Positions 46,609-60,427 of a stretch of DNA of 64,000 nucleotides are shown here, one piece after another. The stretch's first letter is position 1, and every line of letters begins with the position of its first letter. The notes beneath the pieces were generated by a model, which ran no database searches, was not told the DNA's origin, and was given only the letters and a program-made list of their open reading frames with translations. A program made the position numbers and the translations under genes. Source of the stretch: Acidobacteriota bacterium (GTDB taxonomy: Bacteria; Acidobacteriota; UBA890; WLXD01); the NCBI GenBank assembly GCA_965205505.1, contig CBDBHB010000006.1, positions 256,001 through 320,000 on the forward strand, written 5' to 3'.

Positions 46609-46785
46609 GCGGGCGGGCAGTGGGCGAACCCATAGTGCGCTGTCCGGTTGACGCTTGCTGCCACCTACCGCGTAGCTCCGTCCAGAGCGACCTGGGCTGC
46701 CGACGGCCGGTGCTAGACTCCGGCGCCGTTGCCGCAAGGCAACCGCGCAGGCGACGCGAATGTGCACCAGCCAAGGAGGTACCGA

Positions 46786-47883
46786 ATGGAGGTGAGAGCT
46801 GCAGTTCTCGAGGAACCGGGCGCCGAGTTCAGCGTCGGCCCCGTGGACCTGGACGAGCCACGCGGCGATGAGGTCCTCGTCAAGGTTGTTGCCACCGGCA
46901 TCTGCCACACGGATCTGTCAGTGCGCGATCAGTACTATCCGGTGCCGCTGCCGGCAGTTCTCGGCCATGAGGGTGCCGGCATCGTGGAGCGCGTCGGCTC
47001 CGACGTCATCAAGGTCAAGGAAGGCGATCACGTCGTCCTGAGCTTCCACTCATGCGGCGCCTGCGGGAACTGCAAGCAAGGCTCGCCTGGGTACTGCCTG
47101 GAGCTGTTCGGGCACAACTTCGGCGGCGCTCGGCCCGATGGGTCGCCGGTGATGCACCGCGGAGACGATGTCGTCCACGGCGCTTTCTTTGGCCAGTCGT
47201 CCTTCGCCGACTACGCGCTGGCCTTCGAGCGCAACGTCGTGAAAGTACGCGAGGACGCGCCGCTCGAGATGCTCGGCCCGCTCGGCTGTGGGATCCAGAC
47301 GGGAGCCGGAACGGTGCTGAACAACCTGCATCCCAGGGCCGGCCAGAGCATCGCGGTCTTCGGCGTCGGTACCGTCGGTCTGTCGTCGGTCATGGCAGCC
47401 AAGATCGCCGGCTGCGATCCGATTATCGCCGTCGATCTGAACGTCAAGCGACTGAGCCTCGCCGAGGAGCTCGGCGCGACGCACGCGATCAATGCCTCTG
47501 ACGCCGATCCGGTCGAGGTGATTCAGGAGCTCACCGGCGGTGGTGTCAACTACTCGGTCGAGGCGACCGGCGTCCCCGAGGTGGTGCGTCAATCGGTGGA
47601 CTCGCTCGGACTCCTGGGCGTTTGTGGCCTGCTGGGGACCTCGCCGCTAGGAACGGAGATCACCCTCGATATGAACGCCATCTTGTTCGGCCGCACCGTC
47701 CGCGGTGTGATCGAGGGTGACGCGGTGCCGGATCTGTTCATTCCGCAGATGGTCGACATGTACATGGCGGGCAAGTTCCCGATCGATCGCCTGATGGAGT
47801 TCTACAGCCTCGATCAGATCAACGAGGCGGTCGCAGCGACCGAGGGCGGAGGCACCGTGAAGCCCATCCTACGAATGGGCTGA
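46786..47883 (+). CDS. NAD-dependent Zn alcohol dehydrogenase (aryl/allylic alcohol DH type)
   Basis: AAGGAGG RBS, GICHTD, GHEGAG, CGACGNC...C, FFGQSSFA, GPLGCGIQTGAG, IEGDAVP. Confidence 0.93.
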   Translation: MEVRAAVLEEPGAEFSVGPVDLDEPRGDEVLVKVVATGICHTDLSVRDQYYPVPLPAVLGHEGAGIVERVGSDVIKVKEGDHVVLSFHSCGACGNCKQGSPGYCLELFGHNFGGARPDGSPVMHRGDDVVHGAFFGQSSFADYALAFERNVVKVREDAPLEMLGPLGCGIQTGAGTVLNNLHPRAGQSIAVFGVGTVGLSSVMAAKIAGCDPIIAVDLNVKRLSLAEELGATHAINASDADPVEVIQELTGGGVNYSVEATGVPEVVRQSVDSLGLLGVCGLLGTSPLGTEITLDMNAILFGRTVRGVIEGDAVPDLFIPQMVDMYMAGKFPIDRLMEFYSLDQINEAVAATEGGGTVKPILRMG

Positions 47884-47889
47884 GGGAGA

Positions 47890-49410
47890 TCACGGGTCGA
47901 GAGCGCTCAGCTCACGCCGCATGATCTTGCCGGTGCTGGTCTTCGGCAGATCGTCGACGAACTGCACCGTCCGCGGCACCTTGTACGCAGCCAGGTGCTC
48001 TCGGCAGTGGCTGACGATCGCCGCTTCGTCCCCGTTCGCGCCTTTCTTGAGAACCACGTAAGCCTTGGCTGTCTCGCCCTTCATTTCATCCGGCTGACGT
48101 CCTACGGCCACCATGGCGACGTCAGGATGCGCCGCGACGACGCGCTCGATCTCCGCCGGGTACACGTTGTAGCCGCCCGTGAGGATCATGTCCTTCTTGC
48201 GATCGACGATGGTGACGTAGCCATCGGCGTCCATGCTGGCCAGGTCTCCGGTGTGCAGCCAGCCATCCGGCTCGATGGTCTCGGCGGTCCCCCGCTCGTT
48301 GCCGTAGTAGCCCTGCATGACGATCGGGCCGCGCGCCATCAGCTCGCCGACCTGACCACGTGGCAGGGTCTGGTTCGCGTCGTCCACTGCCGCTATGCGC
48401 ATCTCACAGCTGGGCAGCGAAACACCGATCGAGCCGTGCTTGTTGAGCCCATACCGTAGGTTGGTGGTGCCAAGCCCGGCGAGCTCCGTCATTCCCCAGA
48501 GCTCGATGAGCGGGCAGCCGAAGCGTTCCTCGACCTCCCGCATCTTGTTGACCGCCATGGTCTGGCCGCCGACCGTGCAGCAGGTGAGCGACGACAGATC
48601 GTAGTTGACCAGCCCTGGGTGATCCAACAGGTACAGATACATCGTCGGCACACCCTCGAATATGGTGGCGCCGTGGTCTTGGATCGACTGCAAGATTTCG
48701 TCCTGCACGAACAGCGGATGTAGAACTAGCTTCATGCCAACCATGAAAGCGGCGTTGAAGATGACGTTGCCGTATACGTGCGGACACGGCAGCGCCGTGA
48801 CGATGGTGTCTTCGGCGGTGCGCACGTGCATGTTCGCCAACAAGGCGGCGTTGATGATCACGCTCCGGTGGCTTTGCATGGCGCCCTTCGGGTGCCCCGT
48901 GGTGCCCGAGGTATAGCAAATCGTCGACAACGCGTCGGCCGGTACCTCGCGGACCTCGAAGCCGGGTTCGTTGCTCTCGACGAGCTCGTTGAACGACCGC
49001 GCATCGGCGGGGACCTGGTCGCCGAAGACGATGATCTCCTCGACGTCGGAGGAGTCCTTGAGGCCGAGGATCGGTTCCCCTTTTTCTTTCGAGGCCAACA
49101 CCGCCTTTGCGCCGCAGTCGGCGGCTACGAACGCGACCTCCTCCGGGGTCAGCATCACGTTGATCGGATTGATCACCGCCCCGGTCTTGAGCGCTGCGTA
49201 GTAGCTGACGATCCACTCCCAGCGGTTGGCGGAGTACAGCGTCACGCGATCTCCGGGCGTGATTCCGAGCGTCTCCAGACCCTTTGCCAGGCGATCGGAT
49301 AGCTCATTGAGGTCGCGGAACGAGAACCTCTTGTCCCCGGACACCAGCGCGGTCTTCTCGCCGTACTTCACGGCAGCGGCGGGCAGGATCTCTCCGAGCG
49401 AGGTCAGCAT
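47890..49410 (-). CDS. Acyl-CoA synthetase (AMP-forming, FadD-like)
   Basis: YTSGTTGHPKG, WGMTE, GWLHTGD, DRKKDMI, LPKTSTGK. Start approximate. Confidence 0.93.
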   Translation of the reverse strand: MLTSLGEILPAAAVKYGEKTALVSGDKRFSFRDLNELSDRLAKGLETLGITPGDRVTLYSANRWEWIVSYYAALKTGAVINPINVMLTPEEVAFVAADCGAKAVLASKEKGEPILGLKDSSDVEEIIVFGDQVPADARSFNELVESNEPGFEVREVPADALSTICYTSGTTGHPKGAMQSHRSVIINAALLANMHVRTAEDTIVTALPCPHVYGNVIFNAAFMVGMKLVLHPLFVQDEILQSIQDHGATIFEGVPTMYLYLLDHPGLVNYDLSSLTCCTVGGQTMAVNKMREVEERFGCPLIELWGMTELAGLGTTNLRYGLNKHGSIGVSLPSCEMRIAAVDDANQTLPRGQVGELMARGPIVMQGYYGNERGTAETIEPDGWLHTGDLASMDADGYVTIVDRKKDMILTGGYNVYPAEIERVVAAHPDVAMVAVGRQPDEMKGETAKAYVVLKKGANGDEAAIVSHCREHLAAYKVPRTVQFVDDLPKTSTGKIMRRELSALDP

Positions 49411-49563
49411 CTCGACGTTCTGGTACAACGGGCACGGAGCGTAAGTCAAACGGAGGGTGGAGGGACCCTTGACGGTTTCGGAGGTCGGAAACTAGTCTCG
49501 ACAGACACCCTGCGTCTCAGTCTTCGGCCCATCTCGAACTGCACAGCACCCTGGAGCGGCACC

Positions 49564-51210
49564 ATGCGGCATCGCGTCCTACCAATCTCTGTTCTCTGCG
49601 CGGCGCTGGTCGGTGCGCAGCCGGTCGCGCCCCCGGCGGGCGCGGCCATCCTCGCCTCCGACTATCCCTCGCTGTCTACCGAGGAGATGGGGCACGTCCG
49701 CCACATGATCAACCTCGCCAATCAGCTCGACGGCGACTGGTCGCTGATGGGCAACACGCCGGGTGGCAACAACTTCGACGCCTACCAGTTCCAGATCGCC
49801 TTTGCCACCTACGCACTGAGCCTGGCGCAGTACCACAAGGTGCCGGCGCATCGGGACCTCTACCGAGACGCGTCGAGGCGGCTCATCGAGAAGATGATCT
49901 ACAAGGACGTCTGGCAGTACTGGGCGCGCATGAGCCAGTACGAGAAACGCGGTGCGGACCAGGACGGCAACAGCTCCGTGTATCGCGAGGATGGCTGGCA
50001 AGGATGGATCGATCCCAACATCAAGTCGAACATCATGTACAGTGGTCACCTGCTGCAGATGGTCAGCCTGCACGAGTCGCTGTTCGACGACCATCGCTAC
50101 GATGATCCCGGATCTCTGCCGTTCGTGTTCCCGGCGATCGAATACGGCGGCGAGCCGCTGCGCATGGACTACGACCACCAACGGCTGGCGACGGTGATCT
50201 ACGACCAGTTCGTTGCCAGCGACTTCCTCGGCATTGAATGCGAGCTCGGCGCCATCTACACCGAGTGCAACCAGCATCCGATCCTCGGCCTGATCCAGTA
50301 CGACCAGACGCACGGGACGGACTACTCGGCCGAGGTCGAGCAGGAGTTCGCCAAGACGATCCACGAGCGGGAATTCATCTCGCCGGAGAACCACACGACG
50401 ATGTTCTACCTCCACGTGCGCTCCGACGAGGTGATTCCGGCGTCGACCAAGTGGTCATCGACCGGCATGGCCTGGAGCGACGGCTGGAACGGACAGGCAC
50501 ACCACGTCTGGGCCCCGCAGTACGTCAAGGACCTGTATCGCGAGCAAGTGAAGCTCTACATCCCGGGCATGTTCCAGGGTGAGCCCGGCTCCGACATGGG
50601 CTGGACGTCGTCGTTCGATTTCGGCTGGTTCGCGGTGCTGGCGGCCGAGGTCGGCGACATGAAGACCGTCGCCACCATGCTCGAGTACGCCGACGAGCAC
50701 TTCGGGCCTACCTGGCGTGACGGCGGCCTCTATTACCCGCACACGCCCGATTACCGAGAGAACTTCAACCGCGACGAGAACGGTTTCATCCACAACATCA
50801 GCCCAGTCACCGGCAACGTGCTGGTGGCGATGGCGCGCCTCAACCCTGGCGACGGTCTGTGGACGCTGTACAACCAGCCGTGGGAGGAGGAGCACTTCGC
50901 GGAACCGTTCGTTAGCGGCGTGGAGTACATCGAGGCTAATGTCACGCAGGCGATCTACGATCGCGAGGAGGCGGCTCTGATCGTCACGCTGGCGCCCGGA
51001 CCGGTGGAAACGGACAGCACCACCTTCACGATCAACCAGCTCGATCCAACGATCTCGTACTCGATATACAAGGATGGCCGCCACCTCGGCGACCTGAGCA
51101 GTGGATCTACGAACAGAGTGGCGGGGATCCTGTGGAACTTCGACGGTACTCTGACGATCTCCACCGAGCTCGACGAGGCGCATAGCTTCGTGGTGGCCGC
51201 CGATCGGTGA
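49564..51210 (+). CDS. Secreted linalool dehydratase/isomerase-family protein
   Basis: Signal peptide; YQFQIAFATYAL, KMIYKDVWQYW, DPNIKSNIMYSGHL and GIECELGAIYTECNQH, which recall LDI DPIEKENIMYKGHL and GIVCEPDNYFVQCN. Confidence 0.85.
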   Translation: MRHRVLPISVLCAALVGAQPVAPPAGAAILASDYPSLSTEEMGHVRHMINLANQLDGDWSLMGNTPGGNNFDAYQFQIAFATYALSLAQYHKVPAHRDLYRDASRRLIEKMIYKDVWQYWARMSQYEKRGADQDGNSSVYREDGWQGWIDPNIKSNIMYSGHLLQMVSLHESLFDDHRYDDPGSLPFVFPAIEYGGEPLRMDYDHQRLATVIYDQFVASDFLGIECELGAIYTECNQHPILGLIQYDQTHGTDYSAEVEQEFAKTIHEREFISPENHTTMFYLHVRSDEVIPASTKWSSTGMAWSDGWNGQAHHVWAPQYVKDLYREQVKLYIPGMFQGEPGSDMGWTSSFDFGWFAVLAAEVGDMKTVATMLEYADEHFGPTWRDGGLYYPHTPDYRENFNRDENGFIHNISPVTGNVLVAMARLNPGDGLWTLYNQPWEEEHFAEPFVSGVEYIEANVTQAIYDREEAALIVTLAPGPVETDSTTFTINQLDPTISYSIYKDGRHLGDLSSGSTNRVAGILWNFDGTLTISTELDEAHSFVVAADR

Positions 51211-51977
51211 TCCAACGAGCCGCCATAGATCGGTACGTCCTGCTGATCGTCTCCGTGACCTTGTTTGCGGCGTGCAACGACGCGGTCGAACGACCGGACC
51301 ACGACCCGCAGACCGAAGAGCTGGTACGTCAGTACCTGACGGACAACCCAGGGTTCCTGCTCGACAATCCCGAGCTTCTCGCAAACGTTCGGGTGGCGGG
51401 GCAGGCGCGCGATGAGCAGCGTGACGCGGAGGCGCGCCGGGCGATTCTCGACGCCCGCGCCGACATCGTCATTGACCCGGAGCTGACCCCGACGATCGGC
51501 TCGACAGGCGCATCGGTAACGATCATAGAGTTCTCCGACTACCAGTGCGCGCCGTGCAAGGCGAGCTATCCGGAGATCGCGGCGGTGGCCGCATCTGACG
51601 GTGACCTGCGTCTCGTTCATAAGCAGCTGCCGGTGTACGGGAGCCACTCGGTGCTCGCCGCTCGGGCGGCAACGGCTGCTCATCGGCAGGGAGGCTTCGT
51701 TGGGTTCCACGACGCGCTGATGACCACCATGACGCCGCTGACCGCGGAGCTTGTCTACGCTACTGCCGATGATCTGGGACTCGATGTGGACGCGCTCCGG
51801 CGAGACATGCGGGATCCGCGACTGATCGAGTATCTCGCCGCCGTCAAAGAGCTCGCCGAAGCGCTCGATATCGACAGCACACCGACCTTCATCGTTGGCG
51901 ACCATCTCGTCCGCGGCGGTCTGAACGCCGAGCTGCTGCGGGAGTTGGTGCAGAAGCAACGCGCTGTGGATGGCTGA
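51207..51977 (+). CDS. DsbA-family (Com1/ScsC-like) thiol-disulfide lipoprotein
   Basis: LFAAC lipobox, VRQYLTDNP helix, EFSDYQCAPCK, cis-Pro STPTF; GTGA overlap with the upstream gene. Confidence 0.88.
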   Translation: MIQRAAIDRYVLLIVSVTLFAACNDAVERPDHDPQTEELVRQYLTDNPGFLLDNPELLANVRVAGQARDEQRDAEARRAILDARADIVIDPELTPTIGSTGASVTIIEFSDYQCAPCKASYPEIAAVAASDGDLRLVHKQLPVYGSHSVLAARAATAAHRQGGFVGFHDALMTTMTPLTAELVYATADDLGLDVDALRRDMRDPRLIEYLAAVKELAEALDIDSTPTFIVGDHLVRGGLNAELLRELVQKQRAVDG

Positions 51978-52079
51978 TTGCGTTGCAACTGCCTGTCCCG
52001 CACATAGCTTTGCTGTTCGCCAACCCCCTCGGCGCGGTGCGCGTTCCGGCCAGCCGGTCAGTGAACTCCCGGCGTTGCC

Positions 52080-52193
52080 TCAAGGCCCCTAGCTTCGAAG
52101 AGTACCTGGTGGCCGGGCGCGATGACGACGCCGATCCTGGTTTGCACGTTGGCGTCTACCTATTACGGCCTCGACGTGCTGTTCGGTACGTGA
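52080..52193 (+). pseudogene. Sodium:solute symporter N-terminal remnant
   Basis: FEEYLVAGR, then in a shifted frame MTTPILVCTLASTYYGLDVLFGT*, resembling the SSS DYFLAGR motif and following helix. Confidence 0.5.
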
Positions 52194-52197
52194 GGCC

Positions 52198-52329
52198 ATG
52201 AACGGTTGGGACCTGTTTACCTGGATCAACGCGCTAGTGCTGGCGGCGAGCGCGGTAGTGATCTTTGCTTACTTCTTACGTGACGCCCGCGCAGTACTCG
52301 GGCGTCAGGGGCGTGACCACGATGAGTGA
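52198..52329 (+). CDS. 43-aa single-TM small protein
   Basis: GAGG RBS; MNGWDLFTWINALVLAASAVVIFAYFLRDARAVLGRQGRDHDE*; overlaps the MOSC start; below the ORF track cutoff. Confidence 0.65.
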   Translation: MNGWDLFTWINALVLAASAVVIFAYFLRDARAVLGRQGRDHDE

Positions 52330-52876
52330 GCTCGCTGGGTCGGTCGTATCCGTCCACAGTGGTGACCATGTCGACTTGCACAAAGAAGAGCAGCCGGAAG
52401 TTCAGGCGCAGCTCGATGGCTTCGTCGGCGACAAGCACCGCGGCTACTCGCGTGTGGCCTTCGCGGGCGACATCGATCCGGTGGGCACCGTGCGGCGAAA
52501 CGAGCGTCAGTGGTCAGCAGTGTCGATCGAGGAGCTCGAGGTAGTCGCGCAGCGGATGGATCTGCGGGAGCCGCTCGCCGCCTCGACGCTGGGAGCAAAC
52601 CTGTGCTTCCAGGACATCCCAGATCTGTCCGGGCTGCTGCGGGGTACACGCTTACACTTTCCTTCCGGAGCCGTCTTGCGCGTCGAGGAGTGTAATCCGC
52701 CCTGCGTCGAGATGGGGGACCAAATTGCCGCCGCCTACACCACCCACGCCGGTGGTCCGGTGGTCGCCGCCATGTTTCCCAAACACGCGCTGAACCTGCG
52801 CGGCGTGGTCGGGGTGGTCGACGTGCCCGGCCCCATCAGGGCGGGTGACCGCGTGGTAGTCAGATCGGCGCCGTAG
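52322..52876 (+). CDS. MOSC domain protein
   Basis: GFVGDKH, RQWSAVSIEE, LGANL, NPPC, RGVVGVVDVPGPIRAGD. Confidence 0.88.
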   Translation: MSELAGSVVSVHSGDHVDLHKEEQPEVQAQLDGFVGDKHRGYSRVAFAGDIDPVGTVRRNERQWSAVSIEELEVVAQRMDLREPLAASTLGANLCFQDIPDLSGLLRGTRLHFPSGAVLRVEECNPPCVEMGDQIAAAYTTHAGGPVVAAMFPKHALNLRGVVGVVDVPGPIRAGDRVVVRSAP

Positions 52877-52912: not shown

Positions 52913-53646
52913 CTACTTGCGTACCAATGCGTCGAAGATAGCGTTGCGGATGCGCGGGGTCGGTCGGTCACGTAGCTCGGCGTCGTCGAGCGACTCGGCG
53001 ATCTTCATCAGCACCGTCGAGATACGCCGCGGTGCTCCACCGCCTTCGCGAGCCCGCGCACCAGTCGGGCGGGATGAAGGGCGGCAACCTCGGCAAGAAA
53101 CACGCCGCCATAGTTTCGCGCCGTACGGATGTGCGAGGCACATTCCTGCGGTTCCATCCAGCGCACTTCGTCGTCGGTGGCTCCGAGCGCCCGCCAGTCG
53201 TCGAGCTCTTCCCTGACGTGCGCGTGGAACATTTTCGAGGTGGCGATGGTGATATTGCCCCCTTTGGCCCAGTTGCAGTCGATCTCCTCCTGTACACAGA
53301 CACGCCCGACCTCATCGACGGTGTTGAACAGCGCCCGCTGCAAACGAATCGCGCCGTTGCGCTGAGCTGGATCGTGCAGCAGCTGGCCGATGCCGGCCAT
53401 GGTGCCGAGACACCATCCCCCGTTGCGGCCCGACGCCCCGAATCCGGCGATCTCGGCCTCGAGGATGGCTATACGGATGCCGGGCTGACGCTCAGCGAGG
53501 TAGTACGCGGTCCACAGCCCGGTGAACCCGGCACCGACGATAACGACATCTACTCGCTTGTCGGTGGTCAGGCCGGGGCGCGGCGCCAGCGGCTCTGGAA
53601 CCGTGTCGTGCCAGAAGCTGAGGTTGCGGTACTCGTTAGCCGACAC
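52913..53646 (-). pseudogene. DadA/PuuB-like FAD oxidoreductase with large internal deletion
   Basis: SFWHD, GAGFTGLW, GASGRNGG, LHPARLVRGLA; stops after 212 aa, with a C-terminus-like tail (ISTVLMKIAESLDDAE...) joined out of frame. Confidence 0.78.
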
Positions 53647-53679: not shown

Positions 53680-55392
53680 TCAAGGTCGCTGCTCCAGATC
53701 TCGCCCGAGCGCCTCGATGCGCGTCGCTTCGTCGAGACGGCCGAGGGCGCGCAGCTCCGCAGCCAGCACCGGGTAGGTCGAAAAGCGCCCGGGGTTGAGC
53801 CGCCGCGCGCGCTCCAGTGCCACCACCGAGCTCTCGTGGTTGCTGAGCGCGGCGTACGTCATACCGAGGTTGAAGGCAACGAGCCAGTCGTCCTGCGCTA
53901 GCTCGGCGGCGCTCTCGAACAGCTCGAGCGCTCGCTCGAGGTTGTCCTGGCGAAAGTAGTACAGCCCCTGGATGTTGGCGAGGCCGATCTGCGTCACGCG
54001 GTTGGTCTCCAGCTTCTCCTGTTCGTCTGCGGCGGTGAGCGTTCGGTAGCGTTCCATCAGCTGCCGGCTCTCGTCGGTCTTGCCACGATCCCGCAACACC
54101 AGCGCTAGCGTGTAGTAGCCCTCCAGTAAGTCGGGGTTAAGCTCCAGAGCCCGTCGGCAATACGTCTCGGCAGCGGCGAGGTCGCCCATTTCTCGACGCA
54201 CCCGACATAGCTCCTTGTGCGCTAACGGGCTGCGCGGCACGGCACGGATGGCGCGGGTCAACAGCTCATCGGCGACCTCCGGCTGGTTGCGCTTGACGTA
54301 GATGTCGGCCAGACGAATGTAGGCGCTGATCCCCCGGCGGCGAAGCTCGATGGTGCGCTCGTATTCGGTGATCGCCGTCTCGTATTCGGTAATCGCCGTG
54401 TCGAAATCGCCCTGGTTGTCCGACATGACGGCGAGCTCGAGGTAGGAAGGTCCGGCGGCCTGTGGTCCCTCGGCAGCGCGGAGAAAAGTGGCCCGCGCCT
54501 CGGTGTAGTTGCCCATCTGCAACTGCATCCGCCCCTTGAGCAGGTAGAGCCGCGGATCCTCGATGCCGGCTCGCTCGCAATCTCCGATCAAGCTCACAGC
54601 CTGCTCCGGGAGGTACAAGCGTCGATACGCACGGCTGAGCGCCAGGCAGCTATCGCCTTCGTGCGGGCGCTGTTCGAACACCTTCTCGAACGCCTCGGCG
54701 GCCTTCAACACCGCCTCGAGTTCAGTGCCGTGCTCGCTCAGGAGCCGCCCTAGCAGCAACCAGGCGTCGGTCGTCTGCGGCGCAACGGCCACACATTCCT
54801 CAAGCTCTATGATGGCTTGAGCGTGGTCGCCGAGCGCCGCGTAGGCGAGCGCCAGGCCGTAACGCGGCAGCGCTACCTCCGGATTCAGCCGCGAAGCGGC
54901 GCGCAACCAGTTGATCGCTTCCTCGTGCCGCCCGACCCGGAGCAGGGCGATGCCGAGGTTGAACTGGGTGACGAACAAGTCGGGCGCCAACTGGGCTGCC
55001 TGGCTCAGCAGCGGCAACGCTTCGTCGGAGTACCCGAGCTCGAGCAAGGACCGTCCAACCTGGCTGCGCGCGATGGGGTCGTCGGGCTCGAGCACCAGGG
55101 CGCCGTCGAACGCCTCCAGCGCTTCCTGGAAATCACCGTTCTGCAGCGCCGCGGCGCCGGCCAGCAGCAGAGTCTGGAACTCGTTCAGCTCCGCTGGGGG
55201 AGCTTGGTCCTGGGTGTTGGCGAGTACCCCCGACGATCCGAGGCTGCCCGTCGCCGGGGCCGGGGGGGCCGCCGGGTGCAGACCCACCAGCACGCCGAGC
55301 GCGCCCGCAACCAGGATCGACCGGTGCCAGAAGTTGATTGTCGTGAATCGAGTCAAACTGTGTTGATCCGCCATCGGGCTGCCTCTCGACAT
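53680..55392 (-). CDS. Exported multi-TPR protein
   Basis: N-terminal hydrophobic segment and many TPR units (FNLGIAL...A...A...NP). Confidence 0.85.
   Translation of the reverse strand: MSRGSPMADQHSLTRFTTINFWHRSILVAGALGVLVGLHPAAPPAPATGSLGSSGVLANTQDQAPPAELNEFQTLLLAGAAALQNGDFQEALEAFDGALVLEPDDPIARSQVGRSLLELGYSDEALPLLSQAAQLAPDLFVTQFNLGIALLRVGRHEEAINWLRAASRLNPEVALPRYGLALAYAALGDHAQAIIELEECVAVAPQTTDAWLLLGRLLSEHGTELEAVLKAAEAFEKVFEQRPHEGDSCLALSRAYRRLYLPEQAVSLIGDCERAGIEDPRLYLLKGRMQLQMGNYTEARATFLRAAEGPQAAGPSYLELAVMSDNQGDFDTAITEYETAITEYERTIELRRRGISAYIRLADIYVKRNQPEVADELLTRAIRAVPRSPLAHKELCRVRREMGDLAAAETYCRRALELNPDLLEGYYTLALVLRDRGKTDESRQLMERYRTLTAADEQEKLETNRVTQIGLANIQGLYYFRQDNLERALELFESAAELAQDDWLVAFNLGMTYAALSNHESSVVALERARRLNPGRFSTYPVLAAELRALGRLDEATRIEALGRDLEQRP
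54358..54399. repeat. 21-bp tandem duplication (TAITEYE x2)
   Basis: CTCGTATTCGGTGATCGCCGT / CTCGTATTCGGTAATCGCCGT. Confidence 0.85.
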
Positions 55393-55396
55393 GGTT

Positions 55397-57757
55397 TCAG
55401 CTACCGACCCTCGCCTGGGCGCGCTCGGCGAGGCGGGCATTCAGGCGGGACAGGTCGTCCCGGCCGAGTCGATTGTAGATGTCTGCCAAGAGGAAGTGCC
55501 CCAGCGCGCGATCCCGCGGCGGGATCCCGCTCACCGCCAGGGCTCCCTCGACCAACTCGATGGCCTCCTCGTAACCCTGACCGCGCACCAGGTGGATGCG
55601 TGCCATGAAGAGACGCGCGCGCGGGAACATCGGATCGATCGTTAGCGCCAGCTGGAGATAGCGCTCCTCTTGCTCCAGATCTTGCAGGTTACGGTGTATC
55701 AGGCTCAGGTTGAACGCCGACATCAGGTGCCCGGGCGAGATCTCGAGCTCGCGACGGTAGGCGGCGATCGCCTCGTTCAGTCGACCCCGGCGCTCGAACA
55801 GCTGGGCCCAGGTGAAGTGCAGCTCCGGTATCTGGTCGTTGAGCTCCTGGGCGCGATCCAGCTGCGGCTGGGCGAGCTCGATACGACCGAGTTGCATGTG
55901 CGCGCTGGCCAGCCCGACGTGCGCCCCGGCCATGTTGGGGTCGAGCTCGAGCGCTTGGTTGAACGCCGCGATCGCTTCCTCATGGCGCCCGCTGCGCTGG
56001 TAGATGCCTCCGAGGGAGAGTTGAACCCGGGCGTCTGGCTCCAGCACATCGGCGAAATCGGTCAGCACCCGCTCGGCATCATCGGTCCGCCCTGAGCGCA
56101 TCTGAGCGTTGGCGAGGAACAGCACCATGCCGATGTCGTCTGGCTTTCGGGCGATCGCCTCCTCGAAGACAGGGATAGCCTCGGGGTAACGTTCCTGATC
56201 GCTCAGCAGGTTGCCGAGCGCTTGGTAGGCATCGATCACCCCGGGGTCGGCAGCGATGATGCCACGGAACAGCGATTCCGCCTCCGCTAGCTCAGACCGC
56301 AACGTCAGCGACCGCGCCCTCAGGAGATCGTTGTAGATGTCGATCTTGCCTACGGGGCTGGCTCGGATCTCGGTGTCGTCCTCGATGGAGTCGGCGAAGT
56401 TGCCCAGATATCCGAGGGCGGCGAGCCGCCGGCGGGTTTCCTCGTCGAGCGTCACGGCCTCGGCCAGACCGCCATCCTGCTCGTAGTCCGCTACCAGGGT
56501 GTCGGCCTGCTGACGTAGCAGCTCGGTGGTGGCGGCGCGCTGCTGCGACAGGTTCACGGCCTCGTCCGGGTCCGATGCCAAGTCATAGAGCTCCGGCTCG
56601 GACGACATGATGAGCTTGTACTCGGGGCTCAGCAGGACACGTAACTCGCTCCAACCGAAGTGCAGCCGCGGGTAGTAGGTCTCGGAGTAGACCAAGCTGT
56701 CGGTGCGCTCGGGAGCGCCGGCGCCGAGCAGCGGGACCAGGCTCTGGCTCTGCACCTCGGACGGAATCGGCAGCCCGACCAGCGTGAGGATCGTGGGCAT
56801 GATGTCGACCAGCGACACGGGCTCGGATCGCCGTACGCCCTGATAGGCCGCAAACGGTGTGGAGATTACCAGGGGAACGCGGATCGTCGCTTCATAGAGA
56901 AAGAAGCCGTGCTCGATCTCGCCGTGCTCACCGAGGCTCTCGCCGTGGTCCCCCGCTACGATCACGAAGGTATCCTCACGGCGGCCGCTGCTGTCGAGCC
57001 AAGCGATCAGGCGACGGAGCTGCGTATCTGCATAGGCGATCTCGCCGACGTACGGGCGTTCCGGATATCGGTCGCGAAATTCAGGCGGTGGCTCGTACGG
57101 GGTGTGGGCGTCGAACATGTGGACCCACAGGAAGAACGGCGCCGATGGATCTTGGCGGGACCACGCCAGCGCGGCGTCGACCACGTCCGACGCCGGCCGC
57201 TGGATGCTCGCCAGCGCGATCATGCGCGTCCGGGGCACCTCGAACTCGTCGAAGTAGGTGTCGAAGCCCTGCGCCAGCCCGAAGCGCCCGTCGAGGACGA
57301 ACGACGAGACGAACGCCCCCGTCCGATAACCGGCGTCGCGGAACAACTCCCCCAGCGTATCCAGATCGTCGGGCGCCACAAAGGCGCCGTTGTCGCGCAC
57401 GCCGTGGTAGGGAGGGTACGTGCCGCTCATCAACGACGTATGCGATGGCAGCGTCAGCGGCGTCGCCGAGTAGGCGCGCAGGAAGGTAACGCCCGCAGCG
57501 GCCAGCCCATCGAATGCAGGGGTCTCGATGTCGTCGTAGCCATAGGCCCCGATGCGGTCGGCCCGTGTCGTGTCGAGCGTTACCAGCATTACGTTCATCT
57601 GTCGGTCGCCGCGCAGCGAGGCGATGTCAGGTGCAGTCGTCGGTGCCGACAACAAACGATAGCCGACATACGCGAGCGCCGTCACGACCGCCAGGCCTAC
57701 CACGGCGCGCACTGCTATGGTTTGCCAGCTTCGTGATCTGGAGGTCAGCTTGGTCAT
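55397..57757 (-). CDS. Sulfatase-like hydrolase/transferase with C-terminal TPRs (paralog 1)
   Basis: TM, LDTTRAD, PLTLPSHTSL, HMFDAHTPY, GDHGESLGEHGE, ELYDL..DP, LAALGY, TPR array. Confidence 0.9.
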   Translation of the reverse strand: MTKLTSRSRSWQTIAVRAVVGLAVVTALAYVGYRLLSAPTTAPDIASLRGDRQMNVMLVTLDTTRADRIGAYGYDDIETPAFDGLAAAGVTFLRAYSATPLTLPSHTSLMSGTYPPYHGVRDNGAFVAPDDLDTLGELFRDAGYRTGAFVSSFVLDGRFGLAQGFDTYFDEFEVPRTRMIALASIQRPASDVVDAALAWSRQDPSAPFFLWVHMFDAHTPYEPPPEFRDRYPERPYVGEIAYADTQLRRLIAWLDSSGRREDTFVIVAGDHGESLGEHGEIEHGFFLYEATIRVPLVISTPFAAYQGVRRSEPVSLVDIMPTILTLVGLPIPSEVQSQSLVPLLGAGAPERTDSLVYSETYYPRLHFGWSELRVLLSPEYKLIMSSEPELYDLASDPDEAVNLSQQRAATTELLRQQADTLVADYEQDGGLAEAVTLDEETRRRLAALGYLGNFADSIEDDTEIRASPVGKIDIYNDLLRARSLTLRSELAEAESLFRGIIAADPGVIDAYQALGNLLSDQERYPEAIPVFEEAIARKPDDIGMVLFLANAQMRSGRTDDAERVLTDFADVLEPDARVQLSLGGIYQRSGRHEEAIAAFNQALELDPNMAGAHVGLASAHMQLGRIELAQPQLDRAQELNDQIPELHFTWAQLFERRGRLNEAIAAYRRELEISPGHLMSAFNLSLIHRNLQDLEQEERYLQLALTIDPMFPRARLFMARIHLVRGQGYEEAIELVEGALAVSGIPPRDRALGHFLLADIYNRLGRDDLSRLNARLAERAQARVGS

Positions 57758-57797
57758 CAGGGCTCGTCGCTGATCAGCGGTGCGCAGGGGTCCATCG

Positions 57798-60251
57798 TCA
57801 GCGCTGTGTCCCGTCTCGGAGCTGCATCCCAAGACGGGCGTGCTGGTTGGAGAGCTCGTTTCTTCCGAGTCGATTGTAGATGTCCGCGAGCAAGAGATGG
57901 CCCAGCGCCTGGTTCTGCCTGGTGATCTCTTGCGGTACCCGACGCGCCGTCGATGATTCCATTCGCACCAACGCCTCCTCGACGAGCGACAAGGCCTCGT
58001 CGAGGCGCTCGTTCTTCACCAGGTGGATGCGAGCCAGGAACAGGCTTCCACGGGTGAACTGCGGGTTGATCTCGAGGGCCAGACGCAGGTACCGCTCCTC
58101 CCCGACGAGGTCGCGTCGGTTGCGGTAGATGACGCTGAGGTTGATCGCGGCCCTGATGTTGCGCGGCACGTTCTCGAGCTCGCGGCGGTAGGCGGCGATT
58201 GCCTCGTCCGGCTGTCCTCGGGCCTCGAACAGCAAGGCGCGATGGAAGTGCAGATCGGCGAGGGTATCGTTGAAGCCGCGCGCCAGGTTCAGGTGGTCAT
58301 CCGCCAGGCGCGGGCGGCCGGCGGCCAGGTGGACGGCGCCGAGCCCGAGGTGCGCGGCGCCCATGAGATTGTCGACCGGCTTGGGTGCGGTTCGCAGCAG
58401 CCCTGGCATGTCCGCCAGACTGCCCTCGCTGAGGCGCAACGCCTCGTTGAAGTAGGTTGCCGCCTCGTCGTAGGACCCCGTGGATCGCTTGATCTGCCCT
58501 AGGTTGATGTAGAACCGGGCATCCGGCTTCGGGACGTCGATGAAGTCCAGCAACAGAGCCTCGGCCGCGTCCATCCGACCGGCCTGCATCTGCGACTTGG
58601 TGAGATGCACTACCAGGCCTGCATCTTCGGGCCTCATAGAGAGCGCGGTCTCCAAGACTTCGATTGCCTCCTCGTAGCGGAACTGCTCCAAGAGCAGAGT
58701 GCCGAGCGACTGGTGCGCATCGACTACGCCGGCATCCTCGGCGATGACCCTCCGCAGGAGCGTCTCGGCCTCGGCTACCTGGTCGCTGAGGGTCAGGCCG
58801 CGGGCTCGGATCAGGTCGTTGTAGATCTCGATCTTGTCCCTCGGGTTGGCGCGCTCGACGTCCGGGTCGTCGGCGTCGGCGCTGTAGGTGCCGATGTAGC
58901 CGAGCGCGGCGAGCCGCTGCCGCGTCGCCTGGTCGACTGCGACGGTGTTCGCTGGGTTGCTATTCTCCTCGAGCCGCGCCACCAGCTCCTCGGCCTCCCG
59001 GCGCAGCGCCTCTGCCGTGGCGGCGCGCTGTGATACGAGGTTCTGCTGTTCTCCGGGGTCCTGCACAAGATCGTAGAGCTCCGGCTCGGGCGAGATGATG
59101 AGCTTGTAGGTTGGGTCGAGGATCGCCTGGAGCTCGCTCCAGCCGAAATGGAGGCGCGGGTAGAAAGTCTCGGCATAGACGCGCTCGTCGCGCCAGCCCT
59201 CGACCTCGGCGTGCCTGGCAAACAGCGGTACCAGGCTCCTGCCCTGCACCTCCTCGGGGGTCTCCAGCCCGGTCAACTCCAGCACGGTCGGCATGACGTC
59301 GATCAACGAGACCAGCTCGTGACGCTGGATGCCCTGCGGCTCGCCGAATGGCGCGGCGATGATCAGCGGCACCCGGATGGCCGACTCATACAGCAGCAGC
59401 CCGTGCTCGTTCTCCCCGTGCTCGCCAAGGCTCTCGCCGTGATCGGCTGCCACCACCACGTAGGTGTCGTCGGACAGACCGGAGTCGTCCAGCCACGAGG
59501 TCAGCCTGCCCACCAAGGAGTCGGTCCAGGCGATCTCACCGACGTAAGGCCGATCGGCGTATCGTGACCTGAAGGGCTCCGGCGGCTCGTATGGGGCGTG
59601 CGGATCGTACAGGTGTACCCACATGAAGAACGGGGTCGTGTCGTCCTCGCGGGCCCAGGCCAAGGCGGTGTCGATGACCTCCGATCCGGGACGCTGCACG
59701 TGGCCCAGATCGATCTGTCCTTGCTCGGGCGCCTCGAACTCGTCGAAGTAGCGGTCGAACCCCTGCGCCAGGCCCCAGCGCGAGTCGAGGACGAAGGCCC
59801 CGACGAAGGCGCCGGTGCGGTAGCCGGCCTCCTGGAAGCTCTCGGCCAGGGTCTGCAGCCCTTCCGCGGCAACGTACGCGCCGTTGTCGCGCACCCCGTG
59901 GTAGGGCGGGTGGGTGCCGGTGAACAGCGACGTGTGCGAGGGCAGCGTCAGCGGCGTTGGGGCGTAGGCGCGCATGAAGGTGACGCCGCGGGCGGCAAGC
60001 GCATCGATAACAGGTGTGTCGACGTCGTCTGATCCGTAGACTCCGATGTGATCGGCGCGCGTCGTGTCGAGCGTCACCAGCACGACGCTCATCTGCCGGT
60101 CGCCGCGCCGCGAGCCGAGGTCCGGCGCCGAGCCCGGGAGGCGCCAGAACAGATATCCGATGAGGGTCGATGAGAGCACGATCGCCAGGGTGATGCCGGC
60201 GCGAACGGCTCCGGGTCGACGACGAAACGAGCTGGCAGTGGAGTGGGTCAT
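57798..60251 (-). CDS. Sulfatase-like hydrolase/transferase with C-terminal TPRs (paralog 2)
   Basis: Same architecture: LDTTRAD, PLTLPSHTSL, HLYDPHAPY, ADHGESLGEHGE, TPR array. Confidence 0.9.
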   Translation of the reverse strand: MTHSTASSFRRRPGAVRAGITLAIVLSSTLIGYLFWRLPGSAPDLGSRRGDRQMSVVLVTLDTTRADHIGVYGSDDVDTPVIDALAARGVTFMRAYAPTPLTLPSHTSLFTGTHPPYHGVRDNGAYVAAEGLQTLAESFQEAGYRTGAFVGAFVLDSRWGLAQGFDRYFDEFEAPEQGQIDLGHVQRPGSEVIDTALAWAREDDTTPFFMWVHLYDPHAPYEPPEPFRSRYADRPYVGEIAWTDSLVGRLTSWLDDSGLSDDTYVVVAADHGESLGEHGENEHGLLLYESAIRVPLIIAAPFGEPQGIQRHELVSLIDVMPTVLELTGLETPEEVQGRSLVPLFARHAEVEGWRDERVYAETFYPRLHFGWSELQAILDPTYKLIISPEPELYDLVQDPGEQQNLVSQRAATAEALRREAEELVARLEENSNPANTVAVDQATRQRLAALGYIGTYSADADDPDVERANPRDKIEIYNDLIRARGLTLSDQVAEAETLLRRVIAEDAGVVDAHQSLGTLLLEQFRYEEAIEVLETALSMRPEDAGLVVHLTKSQMQAGRMDAAEALLLDFIDVPKPDARFYINLGQIKRSTGSYDEAATYFNEALRLSEGSLADMPGLLRTAPKPVDNLMGAAHLGLGAVHLAAGRPRLADDHLNLARGFNDTLADLHFHRALLFEARGQPDEAIAAYRRELENVPRNIRAAINLSVIYRNRRDLVGEERYLRLALEINPQFTRGSLFLARIHLVKNERLDEALSLVEEALVRMESSTARRVPQEITRQNQALGHLLLADIYNRLGRNELSNQHARLGMQLRDGTQR

Positions 60252-60427
60252 GATGGCTTGGAGTCGGCACCGGTCGATGAGGCCGAGCGGTGCGCGGCGC
60301 GGCACTCCGACCAGGGGTTGCCCGACGGGCATCCATGTAGTTTATAGGTGTACTGGGGCGGCTCACCAGATCGCCGGCCCGTGGATGCGAGGCGATCCTG
60401 CCGGTGAGGCTCAGACTTCGGTTGAGG

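Follow-up and report, generated by a model that had tools for sequence, protein, structure and literature searches.

A periplasmic oxidoreductase dedicated to one client protein is a known kind of system. Client-specific thiol reductases have been described for cytochrome c, CuA and SoxY; in L,D-transpeptidases, DsbG reportedly guards the catalytic Cys, and SoxS is said to reduce SoxY. DsbL/DsbI are said to serve the arylsulfate sulfotransferase of uropathogenic E. coli in the oxidative sense, by forming a structural disulfide together with a DsbB-like partner of their own. In this study, we analysed a stretch of 64,000 nucleotides (nt) from an Acidobacteriota bacterium (assembly GCA_965205505.1, contig CBDBHB010000006.1, positions 256,001 to 320,000 of the forward strand; hereafter the window, with coordinates counted from its first letter). 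It carries two adjacent open reading frames (ORFs), ORF1 for a member of the linalool dehydratase/isomerase (Ldi) family and ORF2 for a thioredoxin-fold lipoprotein resembling ScsC and DsbA. The adjacency of the two gene families goes far beyond chance, and we propose, at a probability of roughly 0.55, that ORF2 is a periplasmic thiol-disulfide reductase specific to one client, the Ldi protein, whose catalytic dithiol it keeps reduced. The Ldi client family, the C-x-P-C subfamily of ScsC-like proteins and an apparently convergent recruitment of three thioredoxin-fold families are, as far as we checked, new.

The closest described counterpart of ORF1 is the linalool dehydratase/isomerase of Castellaniella defragrans (LDI; structures 5g1u, 5hlr and 5i3t), and papers given here by their PMC identifiers are cited for parts of their text. 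The enzyme is Sec-exported, O2-sensitive and dependent on dithiothreitol (PMC6600392), as an earlier note on this DNA had also stated for the oxygen sensitivity and the need for a reductant. It contains a structural disulfide, C48-C101, and the cysteines C170 and C179 'must be kept in a reduced state'; the enzyme is inactive when C170 or C179 is replaced by Ala or Ser, and low yields as well as a strict redox control of the cysteines have been reported (PMC6600392).

The closest described counterparts of ORF2 are the ScsC proteins. These are held reduced by ScsB or DsbD, act as reductases/isomerases, and carry an N-terminal oligomerisation region that impedes oxidation by DsbB (PMC8900818, PMC11634996), in agreement with the placement of ScsC-type proteins on the reducing side from which the earlier note had argued. 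The C-x-P-C motif characterises the periplasmic reductases ResA (CEPC, -256 mV), TlpA (CVPC, -256 mV), CcmG and HelX/CcsX (CAPC), which are reduced by CcdA, DsbD or ScsB-alpha, and the residue before the cis-Pro is typically Thr in isomerases/reductases and Val in oxidases (PMC5909903).

We searched the full-text literature, with subscription papers, including those on the primary LDI structures, outside its reach. Within this scope we found no description of a pairing between Ldi and a thioredoxin-fold protein, in line with the earlier note, which knew of none; no report of an Ldi-type hydratase with its own thiol reductase or of a DsbA/ScsC scaffold with C-x-P-C; and no text on the distance or a mutual disulfide between Cys171 and Cys180 of LDI.

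Two adjacent genes for an Ldi-family enzyme and a thioredoxin-fold lipoprotein

The features of the gene pair are as follows (aa, amino acids; AF2, AlphaFold2; A2, alignment of the ORF2 family).

49564-51210, + strand: ORF1, Ldi-family protein of 548 aa (Pfam PF18566)
ORF1 residues ~1-27: hydrophobic N-terminal leader, predicted from the sequence
ORF1 residues ~30-447: (alpha/alpha)6-barrel in the AF2 model
50239-50268, + strand: C226-E227...C235-N236 motif of ORF1, equivalent to Cys171-Glu172...Cys180-Asn181 of LDI in the alignment to 7ad2
50908-51201, + strand: C-terminal beta-sandwich of ORF1, residues 449-546 (DSSP strands in the AF2 model)
51207-51210, + strand: GTGA, a 4-nt overlap of the GTG start of ORF2 (51207-51209) with the TGA stop of ORF1 (51208-51210)
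51207-51977, + strand: ORF2, ScsC/DsbA-like thioredoxin-fold lipoprotein of 256 aa, C-x-P-C subfamily (Pfam PF13462/PF01323, above cut-off)
51273-51275, + strand: Cys23 of LFAAC in ORF2, predicted lipidation site; an aligned Cys in 16 of 22 rows of A2
51306-51470, + strand: N-terminal helical stem of ORF2, residues 34-88, with a conserved V-R-x-Y-L-x-x-x-P motif (model and alignment to 7rgv)
51546-51557, + strand: active site C114-A-P-C117 of ORF2; C-x-P-C in 31 of 31 partners
51879-51884, + strand: T225-P226, predicted Thr-cisPro loop of ORF2; P226 invariant and T225 in at least 90% of the A2 rows

ORF1 is a member of the Ldi family that folds as an (alpha/alpha)6-barrel. Its sequence matched PF18566 (E 3.2e-78, 263.9 bits against a cut-off of 26.1) over residues 75-394, corresponding to profile positions 1-315 of 318, and phmmer matched it to LDI structures (e.g. 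5g1u and 7ad2; E 1.2e-13). The AF2 model (predicted local distance difference test score, pLDDT, 87.4) retrieved LDI chains at all of the Foldseek ranks 1-26, with 5g1u/5g1w as the best (TMt 0.78-0.79). The HMMER alignment equates M158, H162 and E227 with Met125, His129 and Glu172 of LDI, respectively, and Asp39 and Tyr45 of the LDI N-terminus fall outside the phmmer alignment. Besides the Pfam family, the barrel and the residues Cys171/Glu172/Cys180/Met125/His129, the two proteins share an export leader and a gene context of an alcohol dehydrogenase and an acid-activating pathway (PMC4109377). They differ in that their identity is ~21% by structural alignment, that the C48-C101 disulfide has no counterpart in ORF1, that the LDI chains (361-365 residues) align to the barrel alone, the ~100-residue beta-sandwich being an extra of ORF1, and that PMC4109377, in the part cited, names no thioredoxin-like neighbour for the gene of C. 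defragrans. Ranked behind LDI, the model's next matches in structure were beta-L-arabinofuranosidases of glycoside hydrolase family 127 (HypBA1; E ~1e-6, TM ~0.3), which combine an (alpha/alpha)6-barrel and a beta-sandwich with a cysteine nucleophile. At scores this weak, the match may reflect just a shared fold.

ORF1 has three cysteines, namely C12 in the leader, C226 (50239-50241) and C235 (50266-50268). The catalytic-like pair is therefore, as the earlier note had pointed out, the sole Cys content of the predicted mature protein, which thus has no structural disulfide to form. C226, E227 and C235 are kept in 82 of 82 Ldi rows, as is N236-Q237 with the exception of NE in L071, and these residues are invariant in alignment A1. 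Likewise, 25 of the 31 Ldi proteins linked to a DsbA-like gene (see below) lack any further Cys outside the leader or an over-extended ORF start.

ORF2 is an ScsC/DsbA-like protein, with the thioredoxin fold, its helical insertion, a CxxC and a cis-Pro loop. It matched Thioredoxin_4 (PF13462; E 5.7e-18, 66.1 bits, cut-off 23.2) and DSBA (PF01323; E 3.2e-14, 53.6 bits, cut-off 25.6), and in the PDB 3gyk (E 1.4e-28), Caulobacter ScsC (7rgv; E 7.5e-26, residues 34-253) and Proteus ScsC (4xvw). The AF2 model (pLDDT 90.8) was best superposed by Foldseek on 7rgv, 5id4 and 3gyk (the last with TMt 0.93 and a root-mean-square deviation of 1.7). Its cysteines are C23 in the lipobox-like LFAAC and C114 and C117 in CAPC; the earlier note had singled out this active site, and C-x-P-C proved to be present in all 31 members of the subfamily. 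F109, D111, Y112, C114, P116 and C117 are invariant in A2. In 7rgv and 3gyk, the stretch aligned with T225-P226 reads 'gTPaF'. The stem, predicted as helices 34-46, 49-53 and 55-83 with V40, L44 and P48 invariant in A2, appears to resemble the trimerisation stem of ScsC from Caulobacter crescentus (CcScsC) and Proteus mirabilis (PmScsC), as the HMMER alignment to 7rgv includes chain residues 9-218.

The Pfam scan of ORF2 gave no Redoxin or AhpC-TSA match, and Q, not W, precedes the first active-site Cys. Its match to NCBIfam NF041057 (Rcas_1661 thioredoxin-like (seleno)lipoprotein) stayed below the cut-off (65.6 bits against 190). Elsewhere in our data, a DsbA/ScsC-like match, L136 (genome G766, contig C9:84307-84807), lacks CxxC within the aligned stretch and has a single in-frame TGA, which may encode a selenocysteine active site, in line with this weak NF041057 hit.

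Both products are predicted to be exported, as the earlier note had also concluded, from an Arg-bearing n-region and a hydrophobic core followed by AGA|A in ORF1 or a lipobox in ORF2. None of the alternative in-frame starts of ORF2 retains the leader, and the homologue in locus L005 (loci are introduced below) can be aligned from residue 1. The overlap of stop and start in GTGA, read directly from the sequence, had led to the suggestion of translational coupling. This holds for the window, but the literal overlap is not conserved: the intergenic gap ranges mostly from -4 to ~+50 nt among the pairs and is wider in L066 (121 nt) and L034 (391 nt). What is conserved across the pairs is a tight operon linkage. 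A scan of 49300-52400 for promoters and terminators returned no promoter-like site and one minus-strand terminator-like site, a yield not above that of shuffled sequences, and was uninformative on the operon.

We also noted a 261-nt contig from one metatranscriptome run (X20) that is identical to 50763-51022 within ORF1 and leaves the ORF1/ORF2 junction unbridged; as RNA libraries can contain DNA, it is no proof of transcription. The entire 3-kb stretch is covered by near-identical DNA contigs from two sequencing runs, among which the source of the window may be included. In 19 runs, drawn from 8 coded studies, at least half of the words sampled from 49564-51977 are present.

Conservation of the pairing

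We searched 5.8 billion proteins for relatives of ORF1 (E <= 0.001) and obtained 414, nearly all of them 500-570 aa in length and many from marine Gammaproteobacteria. One genome per species was scanned, yielding 78 loci, which together with the window make 79 sources with 82 Ldi genes. Among the loci, the nearest relatives of ORF1 are found in metagenome-assembled genomes (MAGs) labelled Acidobacteriota (90% and 87% identity), and a tier at 54-60% identity comprises Woeseia, Porticoccaceae, Halieaceae, Luminiphilus, Pseudohalioglobus and MAGs labelled Myxococcota or Planctomycetota. A gene of the ORF2 family lies immediately 3' of Ldi on the same strand in 31 cases, the window included, and these 31 are all of the partner-family genes (31/31): a profile of the family detected no members in the 79 sources apart from those adjacent to Ldi. 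The earlier note had named conservation of the gene pair as a check, and the pair is indeed not confined to one genome, as it occurs in Acidobacteriota, Gammaproteobacteria and MAGs labelled Myxococcota/Planctomycetota. Cultured hosts of the pair include Luminiphilus sp. nBUS_07 and Pseudohalioglobus sediminis NY5.

In a quick maximum-likelihood tree of the 82 Ldi proteins (LG+G4, SH-aLRT support, midpoint root), the clade of the window has 25 rows, of which 23 have the partner and the other two end at a contig edge. The partner is also found in two further clades, L034/L066 and L028-L032 with L053; in the latter, the Ldi proteins are only ~37% identical to ORF1 and the partners ~25-28% identical to ORF2. 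The pairwise identities of Ldi and partner, computed on rows that are in part non-independent, were correlated at r = 0.95 (29 pairs), a value reached in none of 2000 Mantel permutations. This co-divergence indicates that the Ldi and partner genes travelled together.

Two of the loci, L013 and L022, are Ldi-partner-TonB-receptor cassettes in opposite orientation on the 30-kb contig JAQWRT010000029.1, due to either an inverted duplication or an assembly artefact. In L025 (1227-2049), the partner gene next to Ldi consists of two overlapping ORFs, possibly by frameshift or sequencing error.

As the loci had been gathered around Ldi genes, we also ran the search in reverse with the partner profile (A2). 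Five genomes reached via the loci gave six strong matches of 269 bits or more, which were precisely the six Ldi-adjacent genes; everything else scored 28 bits or less. We then took 401 genomes from the order of one gammaproteobacterial host. At E <= 1e-30, 18 of these matched; four scored above 350 bits, have C-x-P-C and lie beside Ldi, while the other 14 (110-155 bits) have CGYC or CGFC, and in none of them was Ldi within 1.5 kb. The same sample contains a PF18566 match in 11 of the 401 genomes: the four close to ORF1 have the partner, and the remaining ones, belonging to distant Ldi subfamilies, have no thioredoxin-fold neighbour within 1.5 kb. In a sample of 401 Acidobacteriota genomes, 37 matched at E <= 1e-25. 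Four of them, all from the genus of the window and including its own genome, scored above 330 bits, with C-x-P-C and beside Ldi; one further genome of the genus gave no match. We viewed 25 of the other 33 matching genomes and found CGYC, CPYC, CPFC and CGFC (one lacked CxxC), with Ldi nearby in none. Thus, in both samples the C-x-P-C subfamily was always beside Ldi (eight genomes), whereas the ScsC-like relatives with other motifs that we examined never were.

A putative client-specific reductase

Apart from ORF2, the genome of the window encodes a second DsbA-like lipoprotein with CPFC (L002, 901-2013) and has two VKOR matches; no DsbB was found in it. For DsbD_TM, this genome gave a single match, a CcdA-type ORF of 242 aa on another contig (C9). 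General oxidation and a possible electron donor therefore exist apart from ORF2. The two VKOR matches (G000:C7:404333-404719 and G000:C9:4181-4567) have the same scores (75.3 bits, E 2.1e-20), and one is near a contig end; the assembly may here contain a segment in duplicate or repeat the end of a contig.

We considered ORF2 as a general DsbA and ruled this out, as (i) the CPFC protein and VKOR are encoded elsewhere and (ii) the C-x-P-C subfamily occurred solely beside Ldi in the genomes searched. ORF2 also differs from DsbA, with its CP[HxF]C-type motif and Val-cisPro loop, in having CAPC and a predicted Thr-cisPro.

The features that favour reduction over generic oxidation are the C-x-P-C site, the Thr-cisPro, the predicted ScsC-like stem, the separate CPFC DsbA-like protein and VKOR, and the need of LDI for reduced cysteines. 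Moreover, ORF1 lacks a structural Cys pair, so that an oxidase would have no evident job. We envisage a two-gene module consisting of an exported Ldi barrel enzyme and a membrane-tethered ScsC-like protein. The chemistry of ORF1 would, by homology with LDI, depend on the free thiols of C226 and C235. In aerobic bacteria, whose envelope is oxidising and contains copper, C226 and C235 could form a disulfide with each other, or one of them could become sulfenylated or enter a mixed disulfide, and ORF2, with its C-x-P-C site and a putative oligomerisation stem, would reduce them. ORF2 itself would then be re-reduced by a membrane electron shuttle, for which the CcdA-type protein encoded elsewhere in the genome is a candidate. 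A complex prediction for ORF1 29-548 and ORF2 80-256 (A1, A2) gave a median of 0.26 against a mark of 0.32, with the controls unfolded, and was counted neither for nor against binding.

Such a module would share features with several known systems and differ from each of them. ScsC of Caulobacter crescentus and Proteus mirabilis, the best matches in sequence and fold, has a DsbA-like domain as ORF2 does, and a long helical stem and a Thr-cisPro loop such as are predicted for ORF2. Nevertheless, ORF2 differs from ScsC in its C-x-P-C in place of CPYC/CGYC, in its predicted lipoprotein anchor, and in a gene context without scsA, scsB or scsD, where the constant neighbour is a client-like Ldi rather than a copper-stress operon; a DsbD/ScsB-type family is not among the recurrent families of the partner-bearing loci. 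With TlpA, CcmG and ResA, ORF2 has in common the C-x-P-C and, as far as its putative task goes, a dedicated reductive role in an oxidising compartment with electrons from CcdA/DsbD (PMC5909903). It is not a member of that group, as its sub-fold is DsbA/Thioredoxin_4 with a helical insertion and not Redoxin/AhpC-TSA.

In concept, DsbG and SoxS are similar to what we propose for ORF2, as they are said to be periplasmic thioredoxin-fold proteins that keep the active-site Cys of an enzyme reduced; unlike the client-linked ORF2 subfamily with its own motif, DsbG is reportedly general and encoded away from its clients. DsbL/DsbI, by these accounts, likewise involve a DsbA paralogue next to and dedicated to one exported enzyme, whereas the motif of ORF2 and the chemistry of its client point to reduction.

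If ORF2 genuinely acts as a reductase for Ldi, it would explain how aerobic marine and soil bacteria manage a chemistry whose one studied example is sensitive to oxygen, and would give a function to a distinct ScsC subfamily. Co-expression of the cognate partner would then suggest itself as a remedy in biocatalysis, where the activity of Ldi is poor and depends on a reductant. The cultured hosts of the pair make the hypothesis directly testable.

Other thioredoxin-fold neighbours of Ldi genes

We counted the neighbours within 400 nt of each of the 82 Ldi genes after clustering them and scanning them against Pfam, with the following result.

ScsC/DsbA-like neighbour: 31 Ldi genes
SCO1/SenC neighbour: 16 Ldi genes
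TlpA-like Redoxin neighbour: 3 Ldi genes
SCO1/SenC and Redoxin neighbours together: 2 Ldi genes
None of the three families: 20 Ldi genes
Ended by a contig edge, not evaluable: 10 Ldi genes

A thioredoxin-fold neighbour is therefore present for 52 of the 72 evaluable Ldi genes. The full-length Redoxin neighbours (n = 8) have WCAPC in six cases and WCGPC in two, i.e., C-x-P-C on a different sub-fold, and the SCO1 neighbours retain CxxxC and a downstream His. One Ldi clade (L052, L055, L061, L063, L067 at 5836-7536, L068 from Streptomyces spiralis, L075 and L081) is apparently leaderless. Each of its Ldi genes is followed, often with a 4-nt overlap, by an SCO1/SenC-like gene that has CxxxC and His and also appears to lack a leader. 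The Ldi proteins of this clade have an additional Cys at the position aligned to residue 230.

Hidden Markov models of the DsbA-like, SCO1 and Redoxin neighbours detected no further members in the 20 loci with none of the three families. A Pfam scan of 67 hand-picked ORFs out of the 144 flanking ones in these loci revealed only a NosL homologue (L047) and a PF01323 protein (L045). The former, a copper-chaperone homologue (L047:7554-8039, + strand; PF05573 E 1.5e-13), starts at the Ldi stop and is followed by an FtsX/MacB-like permease. The latter (L045:3692-4411, - strand; PF01323 E 5e-32) is a different DsbA-family protein, divergently oriented ~46 nt upstream of an Ldi gene that lacks the ScsC-like partner.

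Evidence against the proposed reductase role and alternative explanations

Several points weigh against ORF2 being a reductase for Ldi. The earlier picture of a two-gene unit that keeps a thiol-dependent enzyme active in the periplasm agrees with a pair that is conserved, co-diverging and reciprocally specific, but its mechanism, that is, contact with Ldi, direct reduction of C226/C235, the direction of the electrons and CcdA as their donor, is what we infer. No DsbD, ScsB or CcdA gene lies beside the pair, and the only DsbD_TM match of the genome is on a different contig. ScsC can oxidise in vivo when given an oxidant, and it binds Cu(I) (PMC11634996, PMC8900818), so the scaffold alone leaves the direction unfixed. 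Twenty of the 72 evaluable Ldi genes, including some from aerobic lineages such as Terriglobia and Gemmatimonas, have no thioredoxin-fold neighbour of the three families; the cited text of PMC4109377 names none for C. defragrans, whose Ldi is active when exported in E. coli (PMC6600392). The rows of our comparison are partly non-independent, as the cassettes L013 and L022, which share a contig, are identical and L017, L018 and L026 nearly so. Finally, the apparently leaderless Ldi/SCO1 pairs imply a partner also where the compartment is already reducing, and the argument from an oxidising periplasm leaves these pairs unexplained.

The same pairs would better suit a role in metal handling than protection from oxidation. 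A Cu(I)-binding partner of the ScsC type could shield the Cys2/His/Met site of Ldi from copper, or help to load a metal. The nearest solved relatives of ORF2 are 'suppressor of copper sensitivity' proteins, and CcScsC binds Cu(I) with subpicomolar affinity (PMC8900818). SCO1/SenC chaperones, with CxxxC and His kept, are the alternative neighbours of Ldi (16 alone and 2 with Redoxin), TlpA-like Redoxins are further ones, with TlpA known to reduce ScoI and CoxB before metallation (PMC5909903), and in L047 Ldi is followed by the NosL homologue (PF05573 E 1.5e-13). Owing to this recurrence of copper-linked families (ScsC, SCO1/SenC, TlpA and NosL), we keep the copper role in consideration, albeit as an unlikely explanation. 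C. defragrans Ldi was purified free of cofactors (PMC6600392), and its catalytic residues are shared by the proteins studied here; the gene families found in at least 4 of the 79 sources include no other one linked to copper; and C-x-P-C is a reductase motif outside Sco/ScsC, the known ScsC proteins using CPYC or CGYC.

It is attractive to speculate, with an equally low expectation, that the Cys pair of Ldi is itself a redox-active or copper-binding centre in need of a dedicated service protein, for which three thioredoxin-fold families and, once, NosL were independently recruited to act as its reductant or metallochaperone, also where the Ldi protein is apparently cytoplasmic. If this is the case, many 'Ldi-like' proteins would represent a new thiol- or copper-dependent class with obligate partners and not simple cofactor-free hydratases.

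Alternatively, the partner may be an oxidase or isomerase, which introduces a disulfide between C226 and C235 or reshuffles it, for example for storage or regulation, or aids oligomeric assembly of the exported enzyme. Its fold is DsbA-like, trimeric ScsC works as a disulfide isomerase and can also act as an oxidase in vivo (PMC8900818, PMC11634996), and C. defragrans Ldi requires Dsb-dependent maturation in the periplasm (PMC6600392). Nevertheless, we regard this as improbable: the C48-C101 counterpart is missing and mature ORF1 holds the catalytic pair alone, which in LDI has to stay reduced (PMC6600392); two cysteines leave nothing to isomerise; C-x-P-C and Thr-cisPro are not oxidase features (PMC5909903); and the genome already has the CPFC DsbA-like protein and VKOR.

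The partner could also be an electron source for catalysis itself, if the Cys pair were oxidised at each turnover in a reductive chemistry, comparable to thioredoxin with methionine sulfoxide or arsenate reductases. The linkage of a thioredoxin-fold gene from one of three families to 52 of the 72 evaluable Ldi genes, the presence of partners with apparently cytoplasmic Ldi, where simple protection would be needless, and the tight co-divergence (r = 0.95) would all fit. We consider it very improbable, as the sole characterised member of the family carries out redox-neutral reactions (PMC6600392), the neighbouring genes mirror the route from linalool via geraniol to geranic acid, which needs a hydratase/isomerase (PMC4109377), and 20 of the 72 evaluable Ldi genes do without a partner.

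Gene context and further observations

Other recurrent neighbours of Ldi encode a Zn-alcohol dehydrogenase, an aldehyde dehydrogenase, an AMP-forming ligase, a pyrroloquinoline quinone (PQQ) dehydrogenase and a TonB-dependent receptor. Two of these lie upstream of the pair in the window.

46729-47883, + strand: Zn-dependent alcohol dehydrogenase (Pfam ADH_N and ADH_zinc_N), recurring near Ldi in 22 loci
47890-49449, - strand: AMP-forming acyl-CoA ligase (Pfam AMP-binding, E 8.7e-91), recurring near Ldi in 21 loci

In C. defragrans, linalool is converted via geraniol and geranial to geranic acid (PMC4109377). The neighbour set echoes this route and, by analogy, points to the catabolism of an unsaturated alcohol or terpenoid.

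The recurrence of PQQ-dehydrogenase and TonB-dependent receptor genes in many partner-bearing loci might suggest that the partner serves another envelope protein of the cluster, such as one of these products (the former for its vicinal disulfide), and is merely co-inherited with Ldi. We judge this least probable of all: each of the 31 partner genes directly follows Ldi, no PQQ-dehydrogenase gene lies within 6 kb in many partner loci, including L004, L005, L017 and L018, or in the mapped 41-60 kb stretch of the window, and only the Ldi product among those of the adjacent genes in the window has an export leader.

Downstream of the pair, the window contains an ORF for a flavin adenine dinucleotide-dependent oxidoreductase (DAO) at 53008-53646 (- strand; 212 aa, profile positions 1-164 of 353). 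The homologues in L004 and L005 are ~460-487 aa in length, and the window copy was probably frameshifted or truncated in the assembly. Two neighbouring sulfatase genes follow at 55397-57832 and 57798-60332 (both - strand), the first, which was the one scanned, being fused to a long tetratricopeptide repeat (TPR) region; beside them, a 586-aa TPR protein is encoded at 53680-55440 (- strand).

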